From: Elusimicrobiota bacterium
GTDB lineage: Bacteria > Elusimicrobiota > UBA8919
Direction of reading: 5' to 3'
NCBI GenBank assembly: GCA_043816185.1
Contig: JBDRIG010000017.1
Coordinates: 1 to 10,472, forward strand
DNA: 10,472 nt
The translations under genes were made by a program, and so were the position numbers. This document shows positions 141-10,245 of the stretch, in pieces. Under the pieces are notes generated by a model. That model was not told where the DNA came from, ran no database searches, and was given only the letters and a program-made list of their open reading frames with translations. Numbering within the stretch: position 1 is the stretch's first letter; every line of letters begins with the position of its first letter.

Positions 141-1319
141 CTAATTAATTTCAGCCACCACCATATCGGCAGAACCACTATCAACATAAACCTTTTTTAT
201 CTCACCACTATCAATCAATTTCTGAACTTCCACAGCAGTAGGTTTTTCATCTAATTTAATAAGCCTTGCTACTTCTTGAGTATAAATATATACCACTAAT
301 GAGTTGTCTGTTTCGCTCCATACACCAACAAGTTTTCCCTCGTTATATAACCATTCTTTTGATAACTTGTTGTCGTACGACACATATAATGGCTTACCAT
401 CAATACTATACCAAGTAGTCTCATTTGTTTTACGTTCAAATGTAAAACTTAGTGTTTGACTATCGTAAAACCACTCTTTTTCGGTAATCCCATCTTTAGT
501 TTTCATTACTTGTGGTTTACCATTTTTATAATAGGTGATATTACCGTGTAACTCTGTTGTTGTGTCAAGAACATAATTTCCATTATCATCGTTTATATAA
601 TTATATTTCATAACAATTTTTCCATACTTGTCTTCCGTGTGAGTCATATTACCTTTTTTATCAAAATATGTTTTGTTGTCATAAATATCGGTTTTTAATA
701 CTAATCTGCTATTTTCATCATAATAGTAGTGTGCAACCTCGCGATTCTCAAAATTTATATCAACCGACGCCTGTCCCTTTGTGTTATACACAGTCTTTGT
801 CATGGAAAGTTCGTCCAAAACCCATTCTGTATTTTTGCCATACTTATTATACTGGTACGACCTTACTTTGTTCATGTCTTTGTCATACTCTCCTATAGTT
901 TTACCACCAAAACCTAACTCCTGATAACCAAGAATTTCACCTTTCTCATTTTTGATAACACTCATAGTGTTACCTCGTTGCTTTTCTGTTTCTTTTTGCA
1001 AATTCCCTTCCTTATCAACCTCTTTCGATTTAATAGATAACGAGAATTCTTTGGAACCATCATTGTTAATCCTGAGTGTCAATTTACCACTTGGTGTGTA
1101 ATATAGTCGATTGCCATTTTTATCTTTTGCGGCAACGGGTCTGTTGGGAACAATATTCATCATATCCCTTGGTTTGCCAAACTCCGTAGTATCGATGTTG
1201 AGTGTTGCCTCTGGACCAAACCTTTCTTGCTGCGGCATTGGCAAACACAATAGTTCACCAATAGAAAGATGGCACACCAGCACTCCAACAATAATTTTTG
1301 TAGTGATTGTTTTTTTCAT
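141..1319 (-). CDS. Putative secreted protein with YD/RHS-like beta-hairpin repeats (about 392 aa)
   Basis: Start moved from the ORF-track 1523 to ATG 1319 because MKKTITTKIIVGVLVCHLSIGELLC looks like a signal peptide and the upstream 68 codons cross REP and promoter DNA. The body has recurring YD-like hairpins (YYYDENSRLVLKTD, YFDKKGNMTHTEDKYG, YDKDMNKV, YQYNKYGK). No RHS core or toxin tip is visible. Confidence 0.7.
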   Translation of the reverse strand: MKKTITTKIIVGVLVCHLSIGELLCLPMPQQERFGPEATLNIDTTEFGKPRDMMNIVPNRPVAAKDKNGNRLYYTPSGKLTLRINNDGSKEFSLSIKSKEVDKEGNLQKETEKQRGNTMSVIKNEKGEILGYQELGFGGKTIGEYDKDMNKVRSYQYNKYGKNTEWVLDELSMTKTVYNTKGQASVDINFENREVAHYYYDENSRLVLKTDIYDNKTYFDKKGNMTHTEDKYGKIVMKYNYINDDNGNYVLDTTTELHGNITYYKNGKPQVMKTKDGITEKEWFYDSQTLSFTFERKTNETTWYSIDGKPLYVSYDNKLSKEWLYNEGKLVGVWSETDNSLVVYIYTQEVARLIKLDEKPTAVEVQKLIDSGEIKKVYVDSGSADMVVAEIN

Positions 1320-1331
1320 ATTTGTAATGTA

Positions 1332-1388
1332 ACTATACGCTGACTTTGTGAAAAAGTTAGGGAATTTTTGTAAAAAATTTGTGAAAAC
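1332..1388 (-). promoter_or_regulatory. Promoter module 1: three TT(C/T)ACA boxes on an 11-bp phase plus a -10-like TATAGT
   Basis: Plus-strand TTTGTRAAAA at 1345, 1367 and 1378. On the minus strand TTCACA-N9-TATAGT (1352 to 1332) lies upstream of ATG 1319. Confidence 0.55.
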
Positions 1389-1425
1389 TGAAAAATGGCG
1401 GATAATTCCTGTAAATGTGGTAAAT

Positions 1426-1499
1426 GTAGACACGAATTCTACTCGTGCGATTTTGCACGATTGAAACCAACGGCGCACGGTCACACAGACCGTGCCTAC
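1426..1499. repeat. Inverted pair of GTAG-type REP-like hairpins (REPIN-like)
   Basis: Plus strand: GTAG-A-CACGA-attctac-TCGTG (1426-1447). Minus strand: GTAG-GCACGGTC-tgtgt-GACCGTGC (1499 to 1475, perfect 8-bp stem). A GTAG tetranucleotide next to a hairpin is the signature of RAYT-associated REPs. Confidence 0.6.
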
Positions 1500-1536
1500 A
1501 ACAAATGCATATGCACAAACCATGTCAACACAAGCC

Positions 1537-1831: not shown

Positions 1832-1967
1832 TGCGGTACATTATTGTGAATGGCAACTGTGCAACAACTCCATTTTTGGTTATTGCTGTAATACTTCACA
1901 ATTTCGGCAACAACTTGGCAACCGAATTAAGTTTATCTAAAGGTGTCTGATAGTTCAGTGCTGAATC

Positions 1968-2106
1968 AGACTGTGTCGCAATTCCACTTTTGACCATTGC
2001 GAGGCTTCCGAAGGAAGCCGTGGCAATCTCTTCCCGACGAGAAATATTTTAAAGATTGTTTCACTTCGCTCGTAATGACACACATTTTACTATTGCGACA
2101 CAGTCT
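1968..2106. mobile_element. 139-bp MITE/REP-like palindromic element with perfect 15-bp terminal inverted repeats
   Basis: AGACTGTGTCGCAAT (1968-1982) / ATTGCGACACAGTCT (2092-2106). Nested stems: CATTGCGAG/CTCGTAATG, GCAATCT/AGATTGT and the hairpin GGCTTCC-gaa-GGAAGCC (2003-2019). It resembles the widespread GTCATTGCGAG...GCAATCT repeat family. Confidence 0.7.
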
Positions 2107-2169
2107 CAATGCCTTCTGATACTTATGCACCATCAACTTTATCAATTTTTTTGCCAACTAAGATAACAC

Positions 2170-2265: not shown

Positions 2266-2436
2266 ATATTTCTTGATGAGTATACGGAGTTAGAAAAATT
2301 TAATAGAATATCTTTTTCTGAAAAAGTAAATTTTGTAGGAGAAAAAATAAGGGGAGGTTTTAAAAAAGCAGGTTATACTGAAAAAGATATTCCTCGCTTA
2401 GTCGCAAAGGTACGGGTTGAAAAACACAAAAGATAA
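2266..2436 (+). pseudogene. 5'-truncated type II antitoxin remnant (possibly Phd/YefM-like)
   Basis: Open frame IFLDEYTELEKFNRISFSEKVNFVGEKIRGGFKKAGYTEKDIPRLVAKVRVEKHKR* has an in-frame TAA at 2263-2265 and no proper start. The KKAGYTEKDI..LV.KVR tail is typical of antitoxins paired with PIN toxins. It ends 8 nt before a PIN start. Confidence 0.5.
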
Positions 2437-2626: not shown

Positions 2627-3805
2627 TCAAAGTCCGAGGTCGGCGGGCACCCTACCAAGCGAATGCAATATCGAAATTACCTTTTTTATTCTCTCGTCTA
2701 TTTCTAAATCAGTTCCAGCCCGATTCGGATAGATTTCGTAGAGATCGCGATATTTTTTCGGCGTGAGATTTACCATCAAAGAATTAGCACCCGCAAGCAA
2801 ACCCGATCTTGCAGCATTTTCTTTATCCAATGTCTCTAATGCTGTTGTAACCAAAATTTTACTTTCTGGATAGAGTATTCTTGCCCTCGCAGTTGTTTCC
2901 AAAACCAACTCAAGCGATGGAGATTGAAAATTACTTAATGGTGTATCTGGATGTGGAATAAAAGGCCCAAAAGAAAACAATTCTGTTTTTAAATCGTTCG
3001 ATAATTTGATATTGTTTAGAACATCTTTTTCCGTCTCATCTGGTAGACCAATTAAAAAACCAGTCATAATCAAATACCCAAGTTCGGTTAATTTTTTTAT
3101 TAAATTTAATCTATCGGATAATTTGCACTCGGGCTTTATTTTTTTATAAATTTCTTCGTTGCTCGTCTCAAATCGCAACAGTACTCCCCTAACACCTGCT
3201 TCATATAATTTTACAAAAGTCTGAAGTTCTCTTTCACCTATACTAAAAATAAGCAATATTTTACATTTTTCAAATATTTTTTTTGTTAATGCCAACAATT
3301 TTTCGTCGTCATACCATAAATCTTCGCCTGATTGTAACACCAATGCCTTAAAGCCCAATTTATTTACTGCGTAATCACACAGGTCAACTATTTCGTCAAT
3401 TTCCATTCTGTATCTTTTAAGTTTGCAATTATCTTTTCGCAAACCACAATACAAACAATTACTTCTACAATAATTCGAAAATTCTATAATTCCATGAACA
3501 CAAGATGCGTTGCCAATATGTTTTTGTCTAACGGAGTTTGCAATCTGATAGATATCTTTTGTTTGGCGAGTAAGTCGTAGGTCTGTTTCTTTTAGTTGGA
3601 AGAAAAATTCCTTCCAGGTTTGTAAAATTTCTTTTGCTTCGTCTGGTAAAACTTTTTGTATAACAAATCCACCTTGTGCATATACATAATCGCCTAATGC
3701 GAGTTCAATAAAATCGTTTCGTACTTTTTTGCTTATATCAAAATATTCTATCGTGATAATACTGCCAGTTATTTCAGTTACTTTGCCAGGAATTGCATAA
3801 CACAT
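2627..3805 (-). CDS. hydE: HypC-HydE fusion: N-terminal HypC/HupF chaperone domain plus HydE-like radical SAM maturase (392 aa)
   Basis: Likely start is ATG 3805, giving MCYAIPGKV...LGDYVYAQGGFVIQKV.PDEAKEIL.TW (HypC signature MC.aiPgkv, Cys2, residues about 1-66). It is followed by IANSVRQKHIG...GIIEFSNYCRSNCLYCGLR (CX3CX2C at 113/117/120), VLQSGED, LLRFET, GFLIGLP, GPFIPHPDTPL, TTALETL, and GANSLMVNLTPKKYRDLYEIYPNR (HydE-type C-terminal Yx2YP). Confidence 0.9.
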   Translation of the reverse strand: MCYAIPGKVTEITGSIITIEYFDISKKVRNDFIELALGDYVYAQGGFVIQKVLPDEAKEILQTWKEFFFQLKETDLRLTRQTKDIYQIANSVRQKHIGNASCVHGIIEFSNYCRSNCLYCGLRKDNCKLKRYRMEIDEIVDLCDYAVNKLGFKALVLQSGEDLWYDDEKLLALTKKIFEKCKILLIFSIGERELQTFVKLYEAGVRGVLLRFETSNEEIYKKIKPECKLSDRLNLIKKLTELGYLIMTGFLIGLPDETEKDVLNNIKLSNDLKTELFSFGPFIPHPDTPLSNFQSPSLELVLETTARARILYPESKILVTTALETLDKENAARSGLLAGANSLMVNLTPKKYRDLYEIYPNRAGTDLEIDERIKKVISILHSLGRVPADLGL

Positions 3806-3850
3806 AATAGTTACCAGTTGGCTCGTCTTCAACGAAATTGTTCGGTTGCT

Positions 3851-3909
3851 ACGCTTCCTCGGGACGACAGGCGAGATTGCCACGAGCCGATAAATCGGAC
3901 TCTGGCAAT
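3851..3909 (+). repeat. Degenerate REP-like repeat remnants between hydG and hypC-hydE
   Basis: Copy 2 of the 24-bp repeat (3851-3874). GAGATTGCCACG (3873-3884) is the exact reverse complement of 2019-2030 in the MITE-like element. Hairpin CCGAT-aa-ATCGG at 3887-3898. Confidence 0.65.
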
Positions 3910-3944
3910 AGCTAGCACAGAGCCCATCCGTCCCATAGTCCCTA

Positions 3945-5342
3945 CTAAAAAAATAGGTCTCTTTCGCCGTGTTTAATTTTATTTAATTTTTCTGTTGCTA
4001 ACTTTTTTATATTTTCATCTTCAATTTTATCAAGATAAAAATTTATTACTTCATAACCTTTTTTATAAACACTATCATGTTCAATGCGAGCAAAATCTTC
4101 AAGGTATTCGGCGAATGTTAAACAAGCATTCGGTCGACAAAAATTATGTATTTCACCGTCTTTGGCAAAATTCATAAACGCCTTACCAGTTCTATTTAAG
4201 CGATAGCAAGCAGTACAAAAACTTGGTAATAAATAGTCGTTTAAGACATCTTCAATAACCTCCACTAATGGTCTATGATCAGACAATATAAATTGCCCTG
4301 CATTTTTATGTCCTGCGTTTTCATCCTTTTTACCATACCCACCAGGCGAAGCATTTGAAGCGGCCGATGTTTGTGATATACCAACTTTGAACGCTAATTT
4401 TCTTATTTCTGGTTTTTCACGGGTTGAGATAATCATACCTGTATATGGTACTGCAAGTCGCAACACAGCAATAAGTTTGAGAAAATCGTCGTCGCTAACC
4501 CCATATTCTGGTTTGTAAGTAACCTCTGGTGCATTGCGAAATCTTGGTACAGAAATTGTGTGCGGTCCGACATCATATTTTTTATCAAAATATTGTGCAT
4601 GTGAAATTAAGGACAATACTTCAAATCGCCAATCGTAAAGCCCAAATAAAACTCCAATACCAAAATCATCAATTCCCGCCTCAAATGCGCGTTCATGGGC
4701 AGTAATTTGTCTATCATAATCCGCTTTTGGTCCACGATGCAATTTTCGATATGTTTCACGGTGATATGTTTCCTGAAATAATTGATAAGTACCAATCTTT
4801 GCTTGTTTTAATTTTTTATAATTTTCAACCGTTGTCGCTGCAATGTTTACATTTATCCGATGGATACTACCCTTATCTGTTTTGACAGAATATATTTTTT
4901 CAATCACATTAACGACATAATCAATTGGATTATCGATAGCGTCTTCGCCGAATTCAAGCAAAACTCTTTTATGCCCCATGTTTATTAAAAATTTTATTTG
5001 TTCTTCAATTTCTTCAATCGAAAGTTTTTCGCGAATCAAAATTTTATTTCTTATATGAAAATTGCAATACTCACAATCATTCATACAGTAATTTGAAACA
5101 TATAACGGTGCAAAAAATACCAATCGCTCGCCGTAAATCTCTTCTTTGATATTGGATGCAATACTAAATAATTCCTGAAGCAACTCGGCATCTTTAAAAT
5201 TTATTAAATATCCGATTTCTTTTAATTCCAAACCATTTTTCTTTTTTGCTTTATCTAATATATTTCTAATTATTTCTTTGGTAGGATTTTTTGTTTGAAT
5301 TAAAATATTATTTATTTTTTCTTCGTCTATTATTTTATTCAT
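3945..5342 (-). CDS. hydG: HydG radical SAM maturase (tyrosine lyase, Fe(CO)2CN synthon-forming; [FeFe]-hydrogenase H-cluster family)
   Basis: FAPLYVSNYCMNDCEYC (CX3CX2C), RINVNIAATT, IGTYQLFQETYH, GPHTISVPR (dangler-Fe His), PSFCTAC-X22-C (auxiliary cluster motif, absent from ThiH) and C-terminal GERDLFF. Starts 2 nt after the hypA stop. Confidence 0.95.
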   Translation of the reverse strand: MNKIIDEEKINNILIQTKNPTKEIIRNILDKAKKKNGLELKEIGYLINFKDAELLQELFSIASNIKEEIYGERLVFFAPLYVSNYCMNDCEYCNFHIRNKILIREKLSIEEIEEQIKFLINMGHKRVLLEFGEDAIDNPIDYVVNVIEKIYSVKTDKGSIHRINVNIAATTVENYKKLKQAKIGTYQLFQETYHRETYRKLHRGPKADYDRQITAHERAFEAGIDDFGIGVLFGLYDWRFEVLSLISHAQYFDKKYDVGPHTISVPRFRNAPEVTYKPEYGVSDDDFLKLIAVLRLAVPYTGMIISTREKPEIRKLAFKVGISQTSAASNASPGGYGKKDENAGHKNAGQFILSDHRPLVEVIEDVLNDYLLPSFCTACYRLNRTGKAFMNFAKDGEIHNFCRPNACLTFAEYLEDFARIEHDSVYKKGYEVINFYLDKIEDENIKKLATEKLNKIKHGERDLFF

Positions 5343-5344
5343 TT

Positions 5345-5590
5345 TTAATTTTTCCCTTCAATAGATTTAATAACAATTCCTTTTTCTATGATTTTTTCTA
5401 TCTCCAATTTTACGTTTTCAAGAATTGTTCCTTTAGACAAATACTCAAAACATAATTTTACTGATTCAACTGTTAAATGACCATCTTCACATAATGCAAG
5501 CGAAACGCGCTCTATCTTATTTATATTATTTTTTTGTGCTTGACTGAGAATCTCTTTTATTACCGATTCGGTAATTGACCATTCATGCAT
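5345..5590 (-). CDS. hypA: Short HypA/HybF nickel chaperone lacking the zinc-finger domain (81 aa)
   Basis: ATG 5590 with SD GGAGG 5 nt upstream gives MHEWSI (Ni-binding MHE). It retains CFEYLSKGTILENVKLEIE and the terminal strand IVIKSIE but has no CxxC motifs. The start overlaps the protease stop. Confidence 0.88.
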   Translation of the reverse strand: MHEWSITESVIKEILSQAQKNNINKIERVSLALCEDGHLTVESVKLCFEYLSKGTILENVKLEIEKIIEKGIVIKSIEGKN

Positions 5591-6149
5591 TGTTTCCTCC
5601 AAAATTACTGACTAATTTTAATATCAGTTCACAAGTTTTTGGTATTGCATTTTTTAATGTATCAGATAATTCTGATGTATCTATTTGTGGAATATTTTCT
5701 ACCTGACAAGCAATAATTGCAATATCTATATGACACAGCTCTTTTAGTTCTTTCAATAAATTTGACGTCGGTAGTTGATGCATAGAAAAATCATCAATTT
5801 TATTTTTTGGTAGTTCATCAATCGATATTTCAAAAATTTCACCAGGTTTTTTTTTAGCGTCCACCGAATCAACTATAATAATTTTTTTCGGTTTTGTTTC
5901 AGTGAGAATAACATCAAAAAGTATTTCCCTTATACCAGTTTTAGCATCAATAAAAGCAATATTTTCTGGCAACTTATAATTTTTTTGTAAATATTCAATG
6001 ACTGTGGGGCCAAATCCATCATCGCCAAACAATATATTGCCACATCCTAAAACAAGAATGGTTGGGTTGTTAGAGTGATTGGTAGTTGGAACTGCGATTT
6101 GAGTTGATGGGGTTTTAGAATTGTTGTGATTGAGGTTATTTTTCGACAT
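5583..6149 (-). CDS. [NiFe]-hydrogenase maturation endopeptidase (HycI/HybD family, most like the FrhD type)
   Basis: ILVLGCGNILFGDDGFG, FIDAKTG, IIIVDSVD...PGEI and FSMHQLP motifs. It starts 6 nt after the large-subunit stop and has an N-terminal Asn/Thr/Ser-rich extension of about 30 aa. Confidence 0.93.
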   Translation of the reverse strand: MSKNNLNHNNSKTPSTQIAVPTTNHSNNPTILVLGCGNILFGDDGFGPTVIEYLQKNYKLPENIAFIDAKTGIREILFDVILTETKPKKIIIVDSVDAKKKPGEIFEISIDELPKNKIDDFSMHQLPTSNLLKELKELCHIDIAIIACQVENIPQIDTSELSDTLKNAIPKTCELILKLVSNFGGNNA

Positions 6150-6155
6150 TTATGC

Positions 6156-7457
6156 TCACAAATTATTAATTTTTATCATATGAACGGCACAAGATATACA
6201 AGGGTCATATGTACGAATTACCATCTCTAATTTAAGCTCCATCTCTTTCACCTCTGTTTTATTCTTCAACAGATTTTCCGCTGCTACCTTTAAATCCTTC
6301 TCTATATTTGCACAATTTATCGCTGTTGGAGTTATGATGTCACAAGAAACGCATTTTCCATTTTCATCAAATTCATAGTGATGATAAAGTGTTCCACGAG
6401 GAGCTTCTAATGCACCAGTTCCCTTACATTTTTTTAATTTTATTTTAGGAGCTGGTTCATCTTTGATTCCATCTTTGATAATCTCGTCGATAATCTCCAT
6501 ACTTCTTTGAATAGAATACACCAATTCTACTGCCTGTGCTAAATTATTATAGAGCGGATTTGTATGCTCTTTTGTAAATTTGGCAATATTCATCGCTTCT
6601 TTTGATTCACCGTAAAACATATCCCCAAACAACATAAGTCGTGAAAGGGAGCCAACCATAAATGGTTTTCCTTTGTAGGTTGTATGTTTTGCTCGTGATT
6701 GTTTCAAAACTGCTTCGTTGCACAGTTTTTTATACTCATCTATTTTAAGTTCTACACCGTCGGAAATACTGATACTTTCCCCGTGAAAACTGAATTTTTC
6801 TTTTTCTGGTTTAAGTGCTGTAAGATGTTCTGGGGCATCAATTATCGGAAAAACCTCTAATTCAGAAAAAAACTTTACCGTCTTTAAGCCACTATCAATT
6901 GCTTTTTTTAATCCATCTTTTATTGTAAGTAATTCAATTTCTGAGGGAAGTTTTCCAAAACCACTAATTTTTGTATTTATTGGATGAACTGGTCTTCCAC
7001 CGCCGATTAGTTCTTGAATTGTGTTGCCAAGTTTTTTAAGCGAAAGTCCCATTTTTGCAATGTCAGGATATTTTTGTGCTAATGCTATCACGGAAGTAAA
7101 CCCAAAATGGTCGGGTGCAACTAGACAAAATAGATGAAGTGCGTGGCTTTCAATCATTTCTCCGCAGTGTAAAAGTTCACGCAACAATTTTGTTTGCTTT
7201 GAAACATTTATTCCAAACGCATTTTCAATAGCAGCAAGTGAGGTAAGCATATGCGACGAACTGCATATCGCACAAATTCTGCAAACAATTCCTGGAATCT
7301 CATCATATGATTTACCGACAATTAAAAATTCAAAAAATCTTGAACCTTCAAAAATTTCAAGTTTAACGTCTTGTACAACACCGTCTTTAATATCAACTGT
7401 TACACCACCCGATCCCTCAACCCTGCCTATATGTTCAATCTTTATATTTTCGCTCAT
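6156..7457 (-). CDS. hyhL: Group 3b [NiFe]-hydrogenase large (alpha) subunit (HyhL; HydA in Pyrococcus nomenclature)
   Basis: RVEG, L1 RICAICSSSH, IESHALH, EAPRGTLYH, IITPTAIN and L2 RTYDPCISCAVH, followed by a 7-aa cleavable tail MIKINNL. ATGA overlap with the small subunit. Confidence 0.96.
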   Translation of the reverse strand: MSENIKIEHIGRVEGSGGVTVDIKDGVVQDVKLEIFEGSRFFEFLIVGKSYDEIPGIVCRICAICSSSHMLTSLAAIENAFGINVSKQTKLLRELLHCGEMIESHALHLFCLVAPDHFGFTSVIALAQKYPDIAKMGLSLKKLGNTIQELIGGGRPVHPINTKISGFGKLPSEIELLTIKDGLKKAIDSGLKTVKFFSELEVFPIIDAPEHLTALKPEKEKFSFHGESISISDGVELKIDEYKKLCNEAVLKQSRAKHTTYKGKPFMVGSLSRLMLFGDMFYGESKEAMNIAKFTKEHTNPLYNNLAQAVELVYSIQRSMEIIDEIIKDGIKDEPAPKIKLKKCKGTGALEAPRGTLYHHYEFDENGKCVSCDIITPTAINCANIEKDLKVAAENLLKNKTEVKEMELKLEMVIRTYDPCISCAVHMIKINNL

Positions 7458-8224
7458 TTTTTATTTTCCTCAAATTGGGTCTGTTTTAAGTTGGGATTAA
7501 ATATAAACATACCCATCTTTCTTTTTATATCCTCAATAGAATATCCTTTATCTAAAAGAATCTGAACCTCCGACGCATAATTCGCTTCGACAACGGGCCC
7601 ATGACAACCAGTACACGGAATATTATTTCCAGGACATCTTGCCTTACAACCCTCGACTGTAACGGGACCCAAGCAAAAAAGACCTCTTTCAACCAATAGA
7701 CATTCATACTCCATCATTTTACATTCGCTGCACAAAGCAAAATTTGGAACTTCCAATACATCGCCGTGCAAAAATGCGGTAAAAACACGCAAAAACCATT
7801 TCTTCTCTATAGGACAACCTGGAAGTGATAAATCAACTTTTACGAAATTTTTAAGTGGCTGTGCGGGAATAGAATCAAAATACTCCACGCCTTTTTCTCC
7901 GTAAACATTTTTTAAAAGTTCCTCTCTCGGAACATCGTTTTTCATAGACGAAATTCCGCCACAAATGGCACAGGTTCCGATAGCAACTAAAACACCTGCT
8001 CTACTTCTTATATCTTTAAGATGTTCGAGCTCTTTTTTGGTTGAAACAACCCCTTCAACAAACGCAACATCAATTTCTTTTTCAACATTCCCCGTCTGAG
8101 CAATCACAAATGATTTTATATCAATTTTCGATACAATATCTAAAAACTCGTCTTCACAATTTAGTATCATTAGTTGATCGCCAGCGCAACCAGACAATCC
8201 ATAGATGCCGATTTTTGGTTTCAT
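7454..8224 (-). CDS. hyhS: Group 3b [NiFe]-hydrogenase small (delta) subunit (HyhS/HydD)
   Basis: GLSGCAGDQL (CxxD in place of CxxC), DVAFVEG, AIGTCA, LPGCP, CSEC..C..CLGPVT.EGC.ARCP..C.GC.G. No Tat signal. ATGA overlaps at both ends. Confidence 0.95.
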   Translation of the reverse strand: MKPKIGIYGLSGCAGDQLMILNCEDEFLDIVSKIDIKSFVIAQTGNVEKEIDVAFVEGVVSTKKELEHLKDIRSRAGVLVAIGTCAICGGISSMKNDVPREELLKNVYGEKGVEYFDSIPAQPLKNFVKVDLSLPGCPIEKKWFLRVFTAFLHGDVLEVPNFALCSECKMMEYECLLVERGLFCLGPVTVEGCKARCPGNNIPCTGCHGPVVEANYASEVQILLDKGYSIEDIKRKMGMFIFNPNLKQTQFEENKK

Positions 8225-9051
8225 ACAACCTCCGGCATATTTATAGCATCCCAGTATGTAAAAATGGGGCCATCAGTGCAAGTATATTTATGACCAACGC
8301 CACAATGCAGACACTTCCCAATTCCACATTGCATTCTTCTTTCTAAAGACATCATTATTTTATCTTTGTCAAAACCAATGCTAATAAGTTTCTTTAAGAC
8401 AAATTTGTACATTATGGGTGGTCCACAAATACCTGCATATGTTGTTTTCGCATCAAAGTTCACATAATTAAATAATTCGGTTACCACTCCAATATTAGAT
8501 TTCCATTTTCCCGATTCATCTTTATCAACTGTTAAAAGACATTTTATATCTTTTCTATTTAGAAGTGAGACAAATTCATCCTTAAAAAGTATCTCGTCAG
8601 GATTTTTTGCTCCATACATAAGAGCAATATCCTTAAAATCATTTCTATTATCGAGTGTATACCAAACAAGAGATCTGAGAGGTGCTATACCGATACCACC
8701 TGCAACAATTAATAGATTACTACCCTTTATTTTTTCAATAAAATATCCATTCCCGTAGGGCCCTCTCAAACCGATTATATCGTTTTCTTTTAATTTAAAT
8801 AGAGCACCCGTAACGCTGCCTGCACATCTGACACAGAGTTCTATAATTCCTGGTTTTGTCGGCGATGAAGAAATTGATATTGGTGCTTCGCCAGTTCCCA
8901 AAACAGACAGCATCACAAATTGACCAGGCCTGTGATTAAACTCTTGTCTTACTTTCTCATCTTCAAATCTTATTTGAAACAATTTAGTATCTTCGGTCTG
9001 CGGAATAATACCAATTATTTTTGCTAAATATGGTTGATACGGATTTTTCAC
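8221..9051 (-). CDS. hyhG: Group 3b hydrogenase gamma subunit, FAD/NAD(P)-binding plus [2Fe-2S] (HyhG; AsrB family)
   Basis: PGQFVML, GEAPISISS, RGPYGNG, AGGIGIAPLRS, CGPPIM and ERRMQCGIGKCLHC..CTDGP. SD AGGAGG (9063-9058) fits GTG 9051 (6-nt spacer) better than TTG 9054. Confidence 0.94.
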   Translation of the reverse strand: MKNPYQPYLAKIIGIIPQTEDTKLFQIRFEDEKVRQEFNHRPGQFVMLSVLGTGEAPISISSSPTKPGIIELCVRCAGSVTGALFKLKENDIIGLRGPYGNGYFIEKIKGSNLLIVAGGIGIAPLRSLVWYTLDNRNDFKDIALMYGAKNPDEILFKDEFVSLLNRKDIKCLLTVDKDESGKWKSNIGVVTELFNYVNFDAKTTYAGICGPPIMYKFVLKKLISIGFDKDKIMMSLERRMQCGIGKCLHCGVGHKYTCTDGPIFTYWDAINMPEVV

Positions 9052-9104
9052 CAAACTCCTCCTATAAAATTTTCAATTCTATTTTTTAATTTTTGCGAAT
9101 TACT

Positions 9105-9198
9105 GCAGGATAGATCCTGCGAGCGACTACCAGTATGATTTATTGGTAGATTTATTTGTAGCCGCACCATCTTATGGTACGCAAATCACCACGAGTGA
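9105..9198. other. Cluster of stem-loops, including a GTAG-REP-like remnant, in the beta-gamma intergenic region
   Basis: GCAGGA-taga-TCCTGC (9105-9120), CTACCA...TGGTAG (9127-9149), GTAG-cc-GCACCAT-ctt-ATGGTAC (9158-9180) and TCAC-cacga-GTGA (9186-9198). Confidence 0.5.
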
Positions 9199-9204
9199 CT
9201 TGGT

Positions 9205-10245
9205 TTATTCCAACGTTTCTGCCGTCTGAATTTTATTTAATTCTTCAACAATATTAATTTTTGCAGGACAGAATTCCATACATCTTCCACAGCCAACACA
9301 ACTCGGTCTACCAAAATCGCCAGCAAACGATTGTTGTTTATGTAACCACCTATGTCTAAACCTATCGGAACGGGATTTTCTGAAATTATGCCCTCCGGCA
9401 ACAATGGCATGATCACGAAATAGACAGCAATCCCATTGGCGACTTCTATTGCCTGATTCAAGATTAAGACCAACAATCTCATCGAATATTCTATAACAGT
9501 AGCAAGTTGGGCAAGTCATTGAACAGGTACCACAACTTAAACATTTATTTCCAAGTTCATCCCATAATTTACTTTTGTATTCTAAATCCATAATCTCAGG
9601 CAGGTCTCTTATATCAAGTGATCTCTTGAAACTTTTTTTTCTCAGCAATGAATGATTTTTATATTCGTCAATATCTTCTTTACTTATTTCCACAAATAAT
9701 TCCTTGGAAGAACTCACCATATCATCGCCTTTATTTGTTCCAACTTTAACCATATATGCGTCTGTTATTTCTGATAAAAACAGGTCAAACCCTTTATCGA
9801 CATAATCGGTTCCCATCGAATTGCAAAAACAAAATTCATCAGGTAGACAACTTATGCCTATTAAGAGAATATTTTCTTTTCTTGCAAAATAATATTCATC
9901 TCTGTATTGACCTGAAAAAACCAAATCTAATATCTCGATTCCATAAATATCGCAGGAATGAACGCCAAATATTATATCATGATTTTTAAGCGATTCAATT
10001 GGTTGCACAAAACCACTTTTTGAAAATTTAAACATTGTTTCAGTGGGATGGTAGAAATATTTTTTTAATGGAAGAATGGTTCTTTGATAACCAAGTTGCA
10101 TCTTTGAAACATCAGAATCGTTTTCCATTTTTTTGAAGGCAAAAGATTTTTCACCATTTTTTATTGGAATATGAACTTGACCCATTTTCCTTAAATTAAG
10201 CACAAAACTTGTAAGATTATTTTTAGAGAGTTTTAATGTCTTCAT
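9205..10245 (-). CDS. hyhB: Group 3b hydrogenase beta subunit, 4Fe-4S dicluster protein (HyhB/HydB; AsrA family)
   Basis: FGVHSCD, C..DEFCFC, CLSCGTCSMTCPTCYC, RQWDCC and CVGCGRCMEFCPAKI. SD AGGA lies upstream. First gene of a beta-gamma-delta-alpha order. Confidence 0.94.
   Translation of the reverse strand: MKTLKLSKNNLTSFVLNLRKMGQVHIPIKNGEKSFAFKKMENDSDVSKMQLGYQRTILPLKKYFYHPTETMFKFSKSGFVQPIESLKNHDIIFGVHSCDIYGIEILDLVFSGQYRDEYYFARKENILLIGISCLPDEFCFCNSMGTDYVDKGFDLFLSEITDAYMVKVGTNKGDDMVSSSKELFVEISKEDIDEYKNHSLLRKKSFKRSLDIRDLPEIMDLEYKSKLWDELGNKCLSCGTCSMTCPTCYCYRIFDEIVGLNLESGNRSRQWDCCLFRDHAIVAGGHNFRKSRSDRFRHRWLHKQQSFAGDFGRPSCVGCGRCMEFCPAKINIVEELNKIQTAETLE

Follow-up and report, generated by a model that had tools for sequence, protein, structure and literature searches.

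A [NiFe]-hydrogenase operon with HydG and a HypC-HydE fusion in an Elusimicrobiota bacterium: a candidate maturation pathway without HypDEF

Contig JBDRIG010000017.1 of the Elusimicrobiota bacterium assembly GCA_043816185.1 (genome G000, contig C17) was analysed over its entire length of 10,472 nucleotides, hereafter the window. It carries an operon for a [NiFe] hydrogenase in which the genes for an endopeptidase and HypA are followed by hydG and by a gene fusing HypC to HydE, HydG and HydE being radical S-adenosylmethionine (SAM) families known only from [FeFe] hydrogenase maturation. Judged from sequence comparisons, HydG and HypC-HydE probably replace HypCDEF functionally in the maturation of [NiFe] hydrogenases, and the operon is best explained as encoding a [NiFe] hydrogenase similar to group 3b and, with it, a maturation set that suffices by itself, made up of the endopeptidase, a zinc-less HypA, HydG and HypC-HydE. 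The maturation of [NiFe] and of [FeFe] hydrogenases is taught as two unrelated pathways. An earlier note, made from the window sequence alone, had proposed a hybrid of the two, and each genomic test that it put forward (absence of the hyp and hyd genes, gene linkage and co-variation) came out in favour of the idea.

The operon and its hydrogenase

The eight co-oriented genes that the earlier note had described were all found on the minus strand between positions 2627 and 10245, and the observation of the operon, its genes and its span is confirmed. The first gene encodes the beta subunit (9205..10245, 346 amino acids [aa]), an AsrA/ShyB-like Fe-S protein (PF17179 Fer4_22, 106.6 bits; NF040829 ShyB, 349.1 bits), and the second the FAD/NAD(P)-binding, AsrB/ShyC-like gamma subunit (8221..9054, 277 aa; PF00175, PF10418 and PF00970; NF006220, 330.8 bits, cut-off 395). 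Then come delta, the hydrogenase small subunit (7454..8224, 256 aa; PF01058 Oxidored_q6, 91.8 bits; NF040836, 196.2 bits), and alpha, the [NiFe] large subunit (6156..7457, 433 aa; PF00374, 116.3 bits; NF040828 ShyA). The maturation genes begin with the large-subunit C-terminal endopeptidase of the FrhD/HycI family (5583..6149, 188 aa; TIGR00130, 142.2 bits, cut-off 134.95; PF01750, 91.2 bits) and continue with a zinc-less HypA (5345..5590, 81 aa from its MHE start, in an open reading frame [ORF] that reaches a TTG at 5602), HydG (3945..5342, 465 aa), of the radical-SAM tyrosine lyase family with a C-terminal auxiliary-cluster domain, and the HypC-HydE fusion ORF (2627..3883).

From gamma to hydG the genes are packed as tightly as the earlier note had claimed, with overlaps of 4 nt at gamma/delta and at delta/alpha, a gap of 6 nt between alpha and the protease gene, an overlap of 8 nt between the latter and hypA (20 nt from the TTG start) and a gap of 2 nt between hypA and hydG. 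The spacings from beta to gamma (150 nt) and from hydG to the fusion gene (139 nt) are larger. The promoter-like DNA said to precede the operon lacks statistical backing, as the window contains 38 sigma-70-like sites and 38.4 are expected in shuffled sequence.

The alpha subunit contains both cysteine pairs, in the motifs RICAICSSSH and DPCISCAVH, the second followed by the 7-residue C-terminal tail MIKINNL. A four-subunit beta-gamma-delta-alpha set whose large subunit has both pairs is that of group 3b (sulfhydrogenase type). The equivalog cut-offs of the Pyrococcus/Thermococcus Shy/Hyd enzymes were not reached by alpha (381 bits against 700), beta (349 against 690), gamma (290 against 600) or delta (196 against 500). 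By its sequence, the enzyme is thus a distant, group 3b-like and probably cytoplasmic member of the family.

Loss of the Hyp genes from a genome with two [NiFe] hydrogenases

G000 is a draft genome of 1.44 Mb in 112 contigs, with 34% G+C and an estimated completeness of 94.28%. Genome-wide profile searches gave no match to HypD, HypB or the [FeFe] HydA family PF02906; the best matches to HypF (49.8 bits, cut-off 466.1), HypE (39.7, cut-off 251.6) and HydF (46.7, cut-off 325.55) were below the cut-offs and are weak paralogue matches. The sole HypC and HypA sequences in the genome are those of the window. The earlier note had seen no hypB, hypD, hypE, hypF, hydF or [FeFe] hydA in the operon and had suggested looking for them in the whole genome; profile searches found none in the window and none above the family cut-offs in G000, where the neighbourhood of hypF is unassembled.

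For three of the Hyp genes the loss can be located. In the same-genus genome G001 the gene order is surE, hypC (MCLAIPGK..., 69 aa), hypD, hypE and tgt. In G000, surE (18673-19434) and tgt (19524-20693) are separated by 89 bp in the middle of the 28.6-kb contig C61. Because the two genes lie 89 bp apart within a contiguous contig, against hypCDE between them in G001, the deletion of hypC-hypD-hypE in G000 is real and clean. A frameshift in the hypD of G001 was considered as a sign of decay and discarded, as the break falls within a run of ten A (L037, about 9265-9275) and is probably a sequencing error, conceivably a slippage-prone site. The absence of HypB was also rejected as part of the exchange. 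HypB (TIGR00073) was not found in any of the five HypD-bearing relatives tested (G002, G005, G007, G010 and G017), so its absence is a trait of the lineage, in which nickel insertion seems to run without this usual GTPase.

A second [NiFe] hydrogenase is encoded on contig C70 of G000 (L015 7757-13864), in the order small subunit, large subunit, protease and then MetV-MetF-FTCD-FolD. With 695 bits, its large subunit is above the cut-off of the NiFeSe-type model (600), and it has both Cys pairs and a 15-residue tail; the alignment of the small subunit does not begin before profile position about 39-51, and this subunit seems to lack the twin-arginine translocation (Tat) signal region. The locus is collinear with those of the Hyp-bearing relatives G010 and G008, to which the amino acid identity is 89-91% for the small subunit, 88% for the large subunit and 63-65% for the protease, with 88% for RecA and 87-89% for MetF in the same stretch. 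This family-conserved enzyme of group 1 type is therefore under apparent sequence constraint in G000. Because the resident hypC-hypD-hypE was deleted, the module of the window would also have to serve the C70 hydrogenase; the relatives all mature their enzyme of this type by HypCDEF, and most simply this task has passed in G000 to the incoming module. With the old system excised and both hydrogenases kept in one genome, G000 is the cleanest genomic argument so far. The location of the C70 hydrogenase directly upstream of the genes for MetV-MetF, an FTCD-like cyclodeaminase and FolD is conserved in relatives and suggests an H2-linked methyl-branch (Wood-Ljungdahl) metabolism.

Co-variation across the phylum

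The distribution of the two systems was followed in a set of 41 genomes (G000 and 40 relatives) and in a phylum sample of 301 genomes; the carriers are related, and the counts are not independent trials. In f1, the family of the window, HypD and [NiFe]-family large subunits were detected in 10 of 10 relatives each, and HydG over the cut-off and [FeFe] HydA in none of the 10, so that G000, with HydG and without HypD, is their mirror image. All 17 HypD-positive genomes among the 41 were also [NiFe]-positive. Those that were [NiFe]-positive and HypD-negative were G000, G015 (a fusion carrier), G014 and G021 (78% complete). The HydG-bearing families f2, f4 and f7 carry ordinary [FeFe] hydrogenases.

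When the 301 genomes were searched with the window fusion, six matched from query residue 1 at 53-63% identity (residues 1-391/392 in five genomes and 1-364 in G106), and members of the same clade with longer linkers were found in G015 and G068, the HypC domain being confirmed by Pfam in both. The remaining matches were at most 41% identical and started near residue 80, except that of G180, a partial match of 48% (residues 80-293), which was left out of the nine fusion-bearing genomes. These nine are 89-98% complete. The earlier note had asked whether the gene set co-varies with the loss of hypDEF, and it does: neither HypD nor, over the cut-off, HypE or HypF was found in any of the nine (0/9 each), against HypD in 98 of the 301 genomes of the sample. 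[FeFe] HydA was equally missing (0/9), and HydG was over the cut-off in all nine and adjoined the fusion in eight. Each of the nine genomes has at least one large subunit with the motifs RxCGxCxxxH and DPCxxC and, because both Cys motifs are present, these are true [NiFe] hydrogenases and not NuoD. In the family f13, HypD is present in nine of 10 genomes, and the exception, G068, carries the fusion and HydG, a second instance of the exchange seen in f1.

Linkage in other genomes and metagenomes

The linkage of the fusion to [NiFe] genes, whose recurrence the earlier note had proposed to examine, was found again in other genomes and in metagenome contigs. A protein search in which 8,000 candidates were scored gave 6,897 proteins at E <= 1e-20. 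The best 120 of these all had PF04055 and PF01455, the 119 other than the window protein were 59-69% identical, and the source labels among the 120 include Elusimicrobiota, Omnitrophota, WOR-3, Planctomycetota, Desantisbacteria, Firestonebacteria and Poribacteria. In L016, the fusion and HydG are located about 2 kb from a group 3c/Hdr operon, and in L018 the fusion lies inside another 3b operon, with gamma on one side and delta on the other. Among the genomes of the phylum sample, the genes ahead of it are a group 4 Mbh/Mrp-type operon and hypA in G104, hypA in G070, and a MobB-protease fusion and hypA in G074. In L084 (3625-6387), a 920-aa HypC-HydE-HydG triple fusion comes directly after the small-subunit, large-subunit and protease genes.

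A census was then made of the best 80 of 582 confirmed metagenome loci. ORFs were assigned by BLASTP matches with E <= 1e-5 that spanned 50% or more of a reference protein (HypB was not in the reference set) and each locus was classed by the best reference of its main HydE ORF, which gave 36 fusion-clade loci (30 with fused ORFs and six with cut or split ones) and 44 canonical loci; the loci are not phylogenetically independent. [NiFe] subunits were encoded at 11 of the 36 fusion-clade loci and at one of the 44 canonical loci, proteases at 4/36 and 0/44, and HypA at 4/36 and 0/44. HydG was similarly represented on both sides (13/36 and 12/44). HydF (0/36 and 11/44) and [FeFe] HydA (0/36 and 6/44) were confined to the canonical class, HypD was found at a single canonical locus (0/36 and 1/44) and HypE or HypF at none (0/36 and 0/44). 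Among the loci of at least 5 kb, the two classes differed in [NiFe] subunits (11/21 fusion-clade vs 1/28 canonical, Fisher p 1.1e-4) and in HydF (0/21 vs 10/28, Fisher p 2.6e-3). We are inclined to think that many anaerobic bacteria build Fe(CN)2(CO) from tyrosine by radical-SAM enzymes, HydG and a HypC-HydE acting as scaffold and chaperone, without carbamoyl phosphate or HypD, HypE and HypF, and that the module is portable (groups 1, 3b, 3c and 4) and able to displace resident Hyp genes within a genus-level time span, as in G000.

The 3b large subunit of L018 (13792-15090) ends at the His of DPCISCATH, with no C-terminal tail, and an endopeptidase gene is missing from its operon; such a variant would not depend on a protease. 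The MobB-type P-loop domain that is fused to the endopeptidase in G074 (L069 11537-12481) stands alone just upstream of hydG in G060 (L072 8120-9070), and could be a substitute for the missing GTPase HypB.

HydG, HypA and the HypC-HydE fusion

The HydG of the window scored 531.2 bits against its family model TIGR03955 (cut-off 312.15) and only 272.9 bits against the ThiH model (cut-off 380). Both the radical-SAM motif (CMNDCEYC, CX3CX2C) and the C-terminal auxiliary-cluster motif (CX2CX22C, as CTAC...(22)...C) are present. The protein aligns with the HydG of Thermoanaerobacter italicus (4wcx) over residues 4-465 with 496 bits, and its segment GPHTISVPR, whose His we take to be the ligand of the dangler iron, is identical in 4wcx. 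From its sequence, the enzyme looks fully functional, and nothing suggests an altered reaction. In a tree of 19 HydG sequences, of unknown root, eight [NiFe]-linked HydGs fell on one side of a branch with a Shimodaira-Hasegawa approximate likelihood ratio test (SH-aLRT) value of 100, a split that rests on one phylum and one outside sequence. The dipeptide IH within CX2CX22C (IH in eight of eight [NiFe]-linked HydGs, IK in the 11 others) was considered as a [NiFe]-specific mark and rejected, since the canonical 4wcx also has IH.

The start of the fusion protein is most likely the internal Met at 3805 (MCYAIPGK), which corrects the ORF start at 3883 and gives a protein of 392 aa, like its homologues. 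The HypC domain (residues 1 to about 68, 3602..3805; placed at 3614-3805 by the genome search) scored 53.6 bits against PF01455 (cut-off 28.5; ORF residues 27-90) and matched the HypC of Thermococcus kodakarensis (2z1c) and 3vyr. M1, C2 and P6 are invariant across 28 family members. The conserved His of stand-alone HypC (VHxGFA; VHAGFA in G001), presumably involved in iron/CO2 binding, aligns to a Gln (YAQGGF), and this Q44 is near-invariant in the fusion family.

The HydE-like radical-SAM domain (residues about 79-392, 2627..3571) contains the triad CRSNCLYC and aligns with the HydE of Thermotoga maritima over residues 82-388 with 230 bits; in this alignment, the auxiliary-cluster cysteines are absent from the window domain. 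The pocket residues named in PMC11826987 were compared in 46 fusion-clade and 46 canonical sequences, classed by best-matching reference, as an identity cut-off had misplaced a few; some classification noise persists (for example L084 and the reference rows). In the fused clade, the cysteines of the radical-SAM motif are kept, as are the equivalents of V105, L157, T269 and M291 (Met in 45/46). R54 is replaced by His in 43/46 (Arg in 43/46 canonical sequences; His in the window protein), T134 by Phe in 33/46 (Thr in 42/46 canonical; Ile in the window protein) and R155 by Gly or Ala in 43/46 (Arg in 43/46 canonical; Gly in the window protein), and K309 is mostly Arg. A new Cys precedes the R54-position His by two residues in 43/46 (Cys-x-His). 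Thus, among the CN-contacting residues R54, T134, R155 and T269, T269 alone is retained in the window domain. On these alignments, the fused HydE is a distinct, conserved clade with a remodelled pocket.

HypA begins with MHEWS, which contains the N-terminal MHE nickel motif, and scored 52.2 bits against PF01155 (cut-off 28.9), but only profile positions 1-67 of 112 were matched and the CxxC zinc motifs are missing. A zinc-less HypA of 80-81 residues also adjoins the fusion in L086 and L093, making three of the nine HypAs inspected, that of the window included. In L086 (428-1726), just downstream of the zinc-less HypA of 80 aa, a single in-frame TAA in the linker splits the HypC and HydE parts; the two may be naturally split here, the stop may be read through, or it may be an error of sequencing.

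A proposed maturation route

According to the accessible text of PMC8855341 and PMC11826987, the HydG of the [FeFe] pathway makes Complex A, Fe(CO)(CN)(Cys), a second tyrosine leads to Complex B, Fe(CO)2(CN)(Cys), and the [4Fe-4S] cluster receives the second CN; HydE then strips the cysteine, and its M224 and M291 hold Fe(I)(CO)2(CN)S species until these dimerise. In the organism studied here, HydG would likewise cleave tyrosine and build Fe-bound CO and CN on the dangler iron, a step that we infer because both cluster motifs are conserved and the similarity to the structurally characterised T. italicus enzyme is very high. The HydE-like domain would take up the organometallic iron-cysteine species and strip the cysteine by SAM radical chemistry; the reason for this assignment is the retention of the radical-SAM site, the cavity residues and the M291-equivalent Met. 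Instead of a diiron product being passed to HydF, a mononuclear Fe(CO)x(CN)y unit would be handed to Cys2 of the attached HypC. The replaced CN-contacting residues and the clade-specific Cys-x-His may adapt the remodelled pocket to a (CN)2(CO) species or to this hand-over, which the Cys-x-His possibly aids. Finally, the HypC domain would insert the unit into the apo-large subunits, HypA would add nickel and the protease would trim the tail. These last roles are established for canonical HypC, HypA and protease.

Several observations weigh against a replacement of HypCDEF by this route. The HydG product, Fe(CO)2(CN)(Cys), differs in its CO:CN ratio from the Fe(CN)2(CO) needed by the [NiFe] site (PMC8855341, accessible text). 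Two tyrosines would provide two CN and two CO, enough for Fe(CN)2(CO) and a spare CO, if an altered partition is assumed, and this changed partition is the weakest step of the mechanism. The HydE domain of the window scored below the cut-off of TIGR03956 (245.5 against 254.6 bits), with the fusion relatives of L016 (262.2) and L018 (261.2) above it, and the equivalent of the Fe(I)-binding M224 (T. maritima numbering), which is Met in 43 of the 46 fusion-clade sequences and in canonical HydE, is Leu in the window protein. All the genomes compared are draft assemblies of the metagenome-assembled type. In G001, full-length hypA and hypF are beside tig, clpP and lon, for which tblastn gave no match in the G000 assembly; because this syntenic neighbourhood is unassembled, the absence of hypF in G000 is not proven. 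G015 has the fusion (L065 7314-8609), but the HydG found there, next to a HydF, belongs to the [FeFe]-associated type. G014, rated '100% complete' (L061, L062), has 3b and 3c [NiFe] hydrogenases, and no HypD, HydG or fusion was found in it; its 3b operon is cut off by the end of the contig immediately behind alpha, at the place where one would expect the maturase genes. Lastly, 10 of the 21 fusion-clade metagenome loci of at least 5 kb have no [NiFe] subunit in their flanks. The HydF-HydG pair of G015 (L066 5329-8062) adjoins an integrase, and no [FeFe] HydA was detectable in that genome.

Alternative explanations

The module might mature another target, such as an iron-carbonyl enzyme that has escaped recognition or a hydrogenase of divergent [FeFe] type missed by PF02906, its linkage to the [NiFe] genes reflecting co-regulation only. 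A HydG indistinguishable from the canonical one, the HydF retained by G015 without a detectable HydA, and the absence of a nearby [NiFe] gene from about half of the longer fusion-clade loci would all fit. We nevertheless regard this as unlikely, for HydE is covalently joined to HypC, which as a chaperone is known from [NiFe] large subunits alone and whose essential Cys2 is invariant; hydG is 2 nt from hypA within the hydrogenase operon, the fusion of L018 sits between structural subunits, and neither HydF nor HydA was found in the 36 fusion-clade flanks. Moreover, such a target would leave intact [NiFe] enzymes without means of maturation.

Alternatively, HydG and HypC-HydE could supply the CO ligand only, with cyanide still coming from HypE/HypF and assembly proceeding on HypD, all three being encoded elsewhere. 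The anaerobic source of CO in [NiFe] maturation is a recognised gap, and the hypF neighbourhood of G000 is missing from the assembly; HydG is also able to release free CO, as stated in the accessible text of PMC8855341. This division of labour is very unlikely given the deletion of hypC, hypD and hypE between intact flanking genes, the absence of HypD, HypE and HypF from all nine fusion carriers, 89-98% complete, and their absence from the 36 fusion-clade flanks.

Reductive decay, in which the hydrogenases are being lost after the Hyp genes and HydG/HydE are relics of a lost [FeFe] system, would suit the small genome (1.44 Mb) and the Leu at the M224 position, but is highly improbable: none of the eight operon genes or of the three hydrogenase genes on C70 is disrupted, and their catalytic motifs are present, the C70 subunits are as conserved as RecA in comparison with the Hyp-bearing relatives, the family f1 offers no [FeFe] source of relics (HydA and HydG over the cut-off 0/10 each), and the members of the fusion family among the best 120 proteins listed, which come from many phyla, are still 59-69% identical. 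That C17 comes from another organism by an assembly or binning artefact, ordinary Hyp genes being merely unassembled in a 112-contig, 94% complete draft that has a C17 of only 10.5 kb and is missing tig, clpP and lon, is scarcely credible in view of the hypCDE deletion within the contiguous 28.6-kb contig, of the same gene content in eight other genomes, of a tetranucleotide profile that correlates with the rest of the bin at 0.990, above 24 of the 37 contigs sized 7-15 kb, and of a dispersed repeat of G000 on C17 that is weak in the sister genome and absent from distant fusion carriers.

Other features of the window

Because it carries this genome-specific repeat and has a tetranucleotide correlation of 0.990, C17 belongs to G000. 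The repeat copy of the window (1964..2111, no strand assigned) represents an element of about 145 bp with 16 further matches of at least 80 bp and 86-97% identity on 14 other G000 contigs, and 79 matches on 47 G000 contigs overall. The element is weak in the same-genus genome (three matches, 78-86%), barely present in one same-family genome and was not found in three more distant genomes, two of them fusion carriers; it is probably a MITE- or REP-like element (miniature inverted-repeat transposable element or repetitive extragenic palindrome). One copy lies about 100 bp upstream of the small-subunit gene of the second hydrogenase (C70:13531-13660), and another at a synteny break on contig C89.

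A terminator-like hairpin with a weak consensus match (2392..2409, minus strand) is located about 220 nt downstream of the fusion gene; with three such sites in the window and 5.0 expected, they are not above chance. Also downstream of the operon, the non-coding region at about 2470-2520 has a short tandem run of CCAAAA-like units in the minus-strand reading. The ORF at 141-1523 (minus strand, 460 aa) belongs to no Pfam family, a sub-threshold YD-repeat match being its only similarity, and Rfam and tRNA scans of the window gave no match. Among sequencing runs, no RNA run was listed and one DNA run contained a small share of the sequence words (0.08), which has no bearing on expression or habitat.

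Comparison with known systems

In the full-text literature searched, no description was found of [NiFe] maturation by HydG/HydE or of HypCDEF-less [NiFe] organisms with HydG, and the part of PMC9431212 that was available treats the [NiFe] and [FeFe] maturation systems separately. The claim of the earlier note that no characterised example exists agrees with this literature, in which a single passing mention of the fusion was met, in a 2026 preprint (bioRxiv 10.64898/2026.04.11.717937). There, in the accessible text, a protein in which HydE is fused to HypC, described as unusual, is reported from the [NiFe] operon of a Legionellales symbiont, with a protease and HypA, and is listed in the 'full maturation machinery' with no analysis; HypB is present, unlike in the window, and the words HydG and HypD do not occur in the main text as accessible. 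What is new is that known protein families are combined anew and would serve a target not known for them.

If HydG and HypC-HydE do replace HypCDEF, there would be a second, tyrosine-based route to Fe(CN)2(CO), and an evolutionary bridge between both hydrogenase maturation machineries. Where anaerobes obtain the CO ligand of their [NiFe] enzymes has long been an open question, which would be answered for at least these organisms. For the expression of hydrogenases in other hosts, two genes could moreover take the place of four Hyp genes. The idea can be tested directly and concerns the source of both CO and CN in the [NiFe] hydrogenases of anaerobes.

With the canonical system of HypA-F and endopeptidase (Escherichia coli, T. 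kodakarensis), the window shares the target, a large subunit that has four Cys ligands and ends in a C-terminal tail, as well as the HypC MCxxxP motif, the HypA MHE nickel motif and the endopeptidase family. It differs in having neither the HypD scaffold nor the cyanide synthesis of HypE/HypF, in the fusion of HypC to a radical-SAM enzyme with His changed to Gln, in a HypA without its zinc domain and in the lack of HypB, the last also a feature of the Hyp-bearing relatives. With the HydG-HydE-HydF system of [FeFe] hydrogenases (T. italicus 4wcx; T. maritima 3cix/7o1o), it has in common a HydG that is a full family member with both cluster motifs and, in the HydE domain, the Cys triad of the radical-SAM site together with the counterparts of V105, L157, T269 and M291; however, G000 has no HydF or HydA, and the HydE of the window has a remodelled pocket, as far as its alignment tells, and is fused to HypC. 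A parallel in which a dedicated extra enzyme supplies a diatomic ligand to the Hyp machinery is the HypX-dependent aerobic synthesis of CO. HypX, however, adds to HypCDEF and uses formyl-tetrahydrofolate, whereas in the module of the window HypCDEF is missing and the candidate source is tyrosine, by way of a radical-SAM enzyme.

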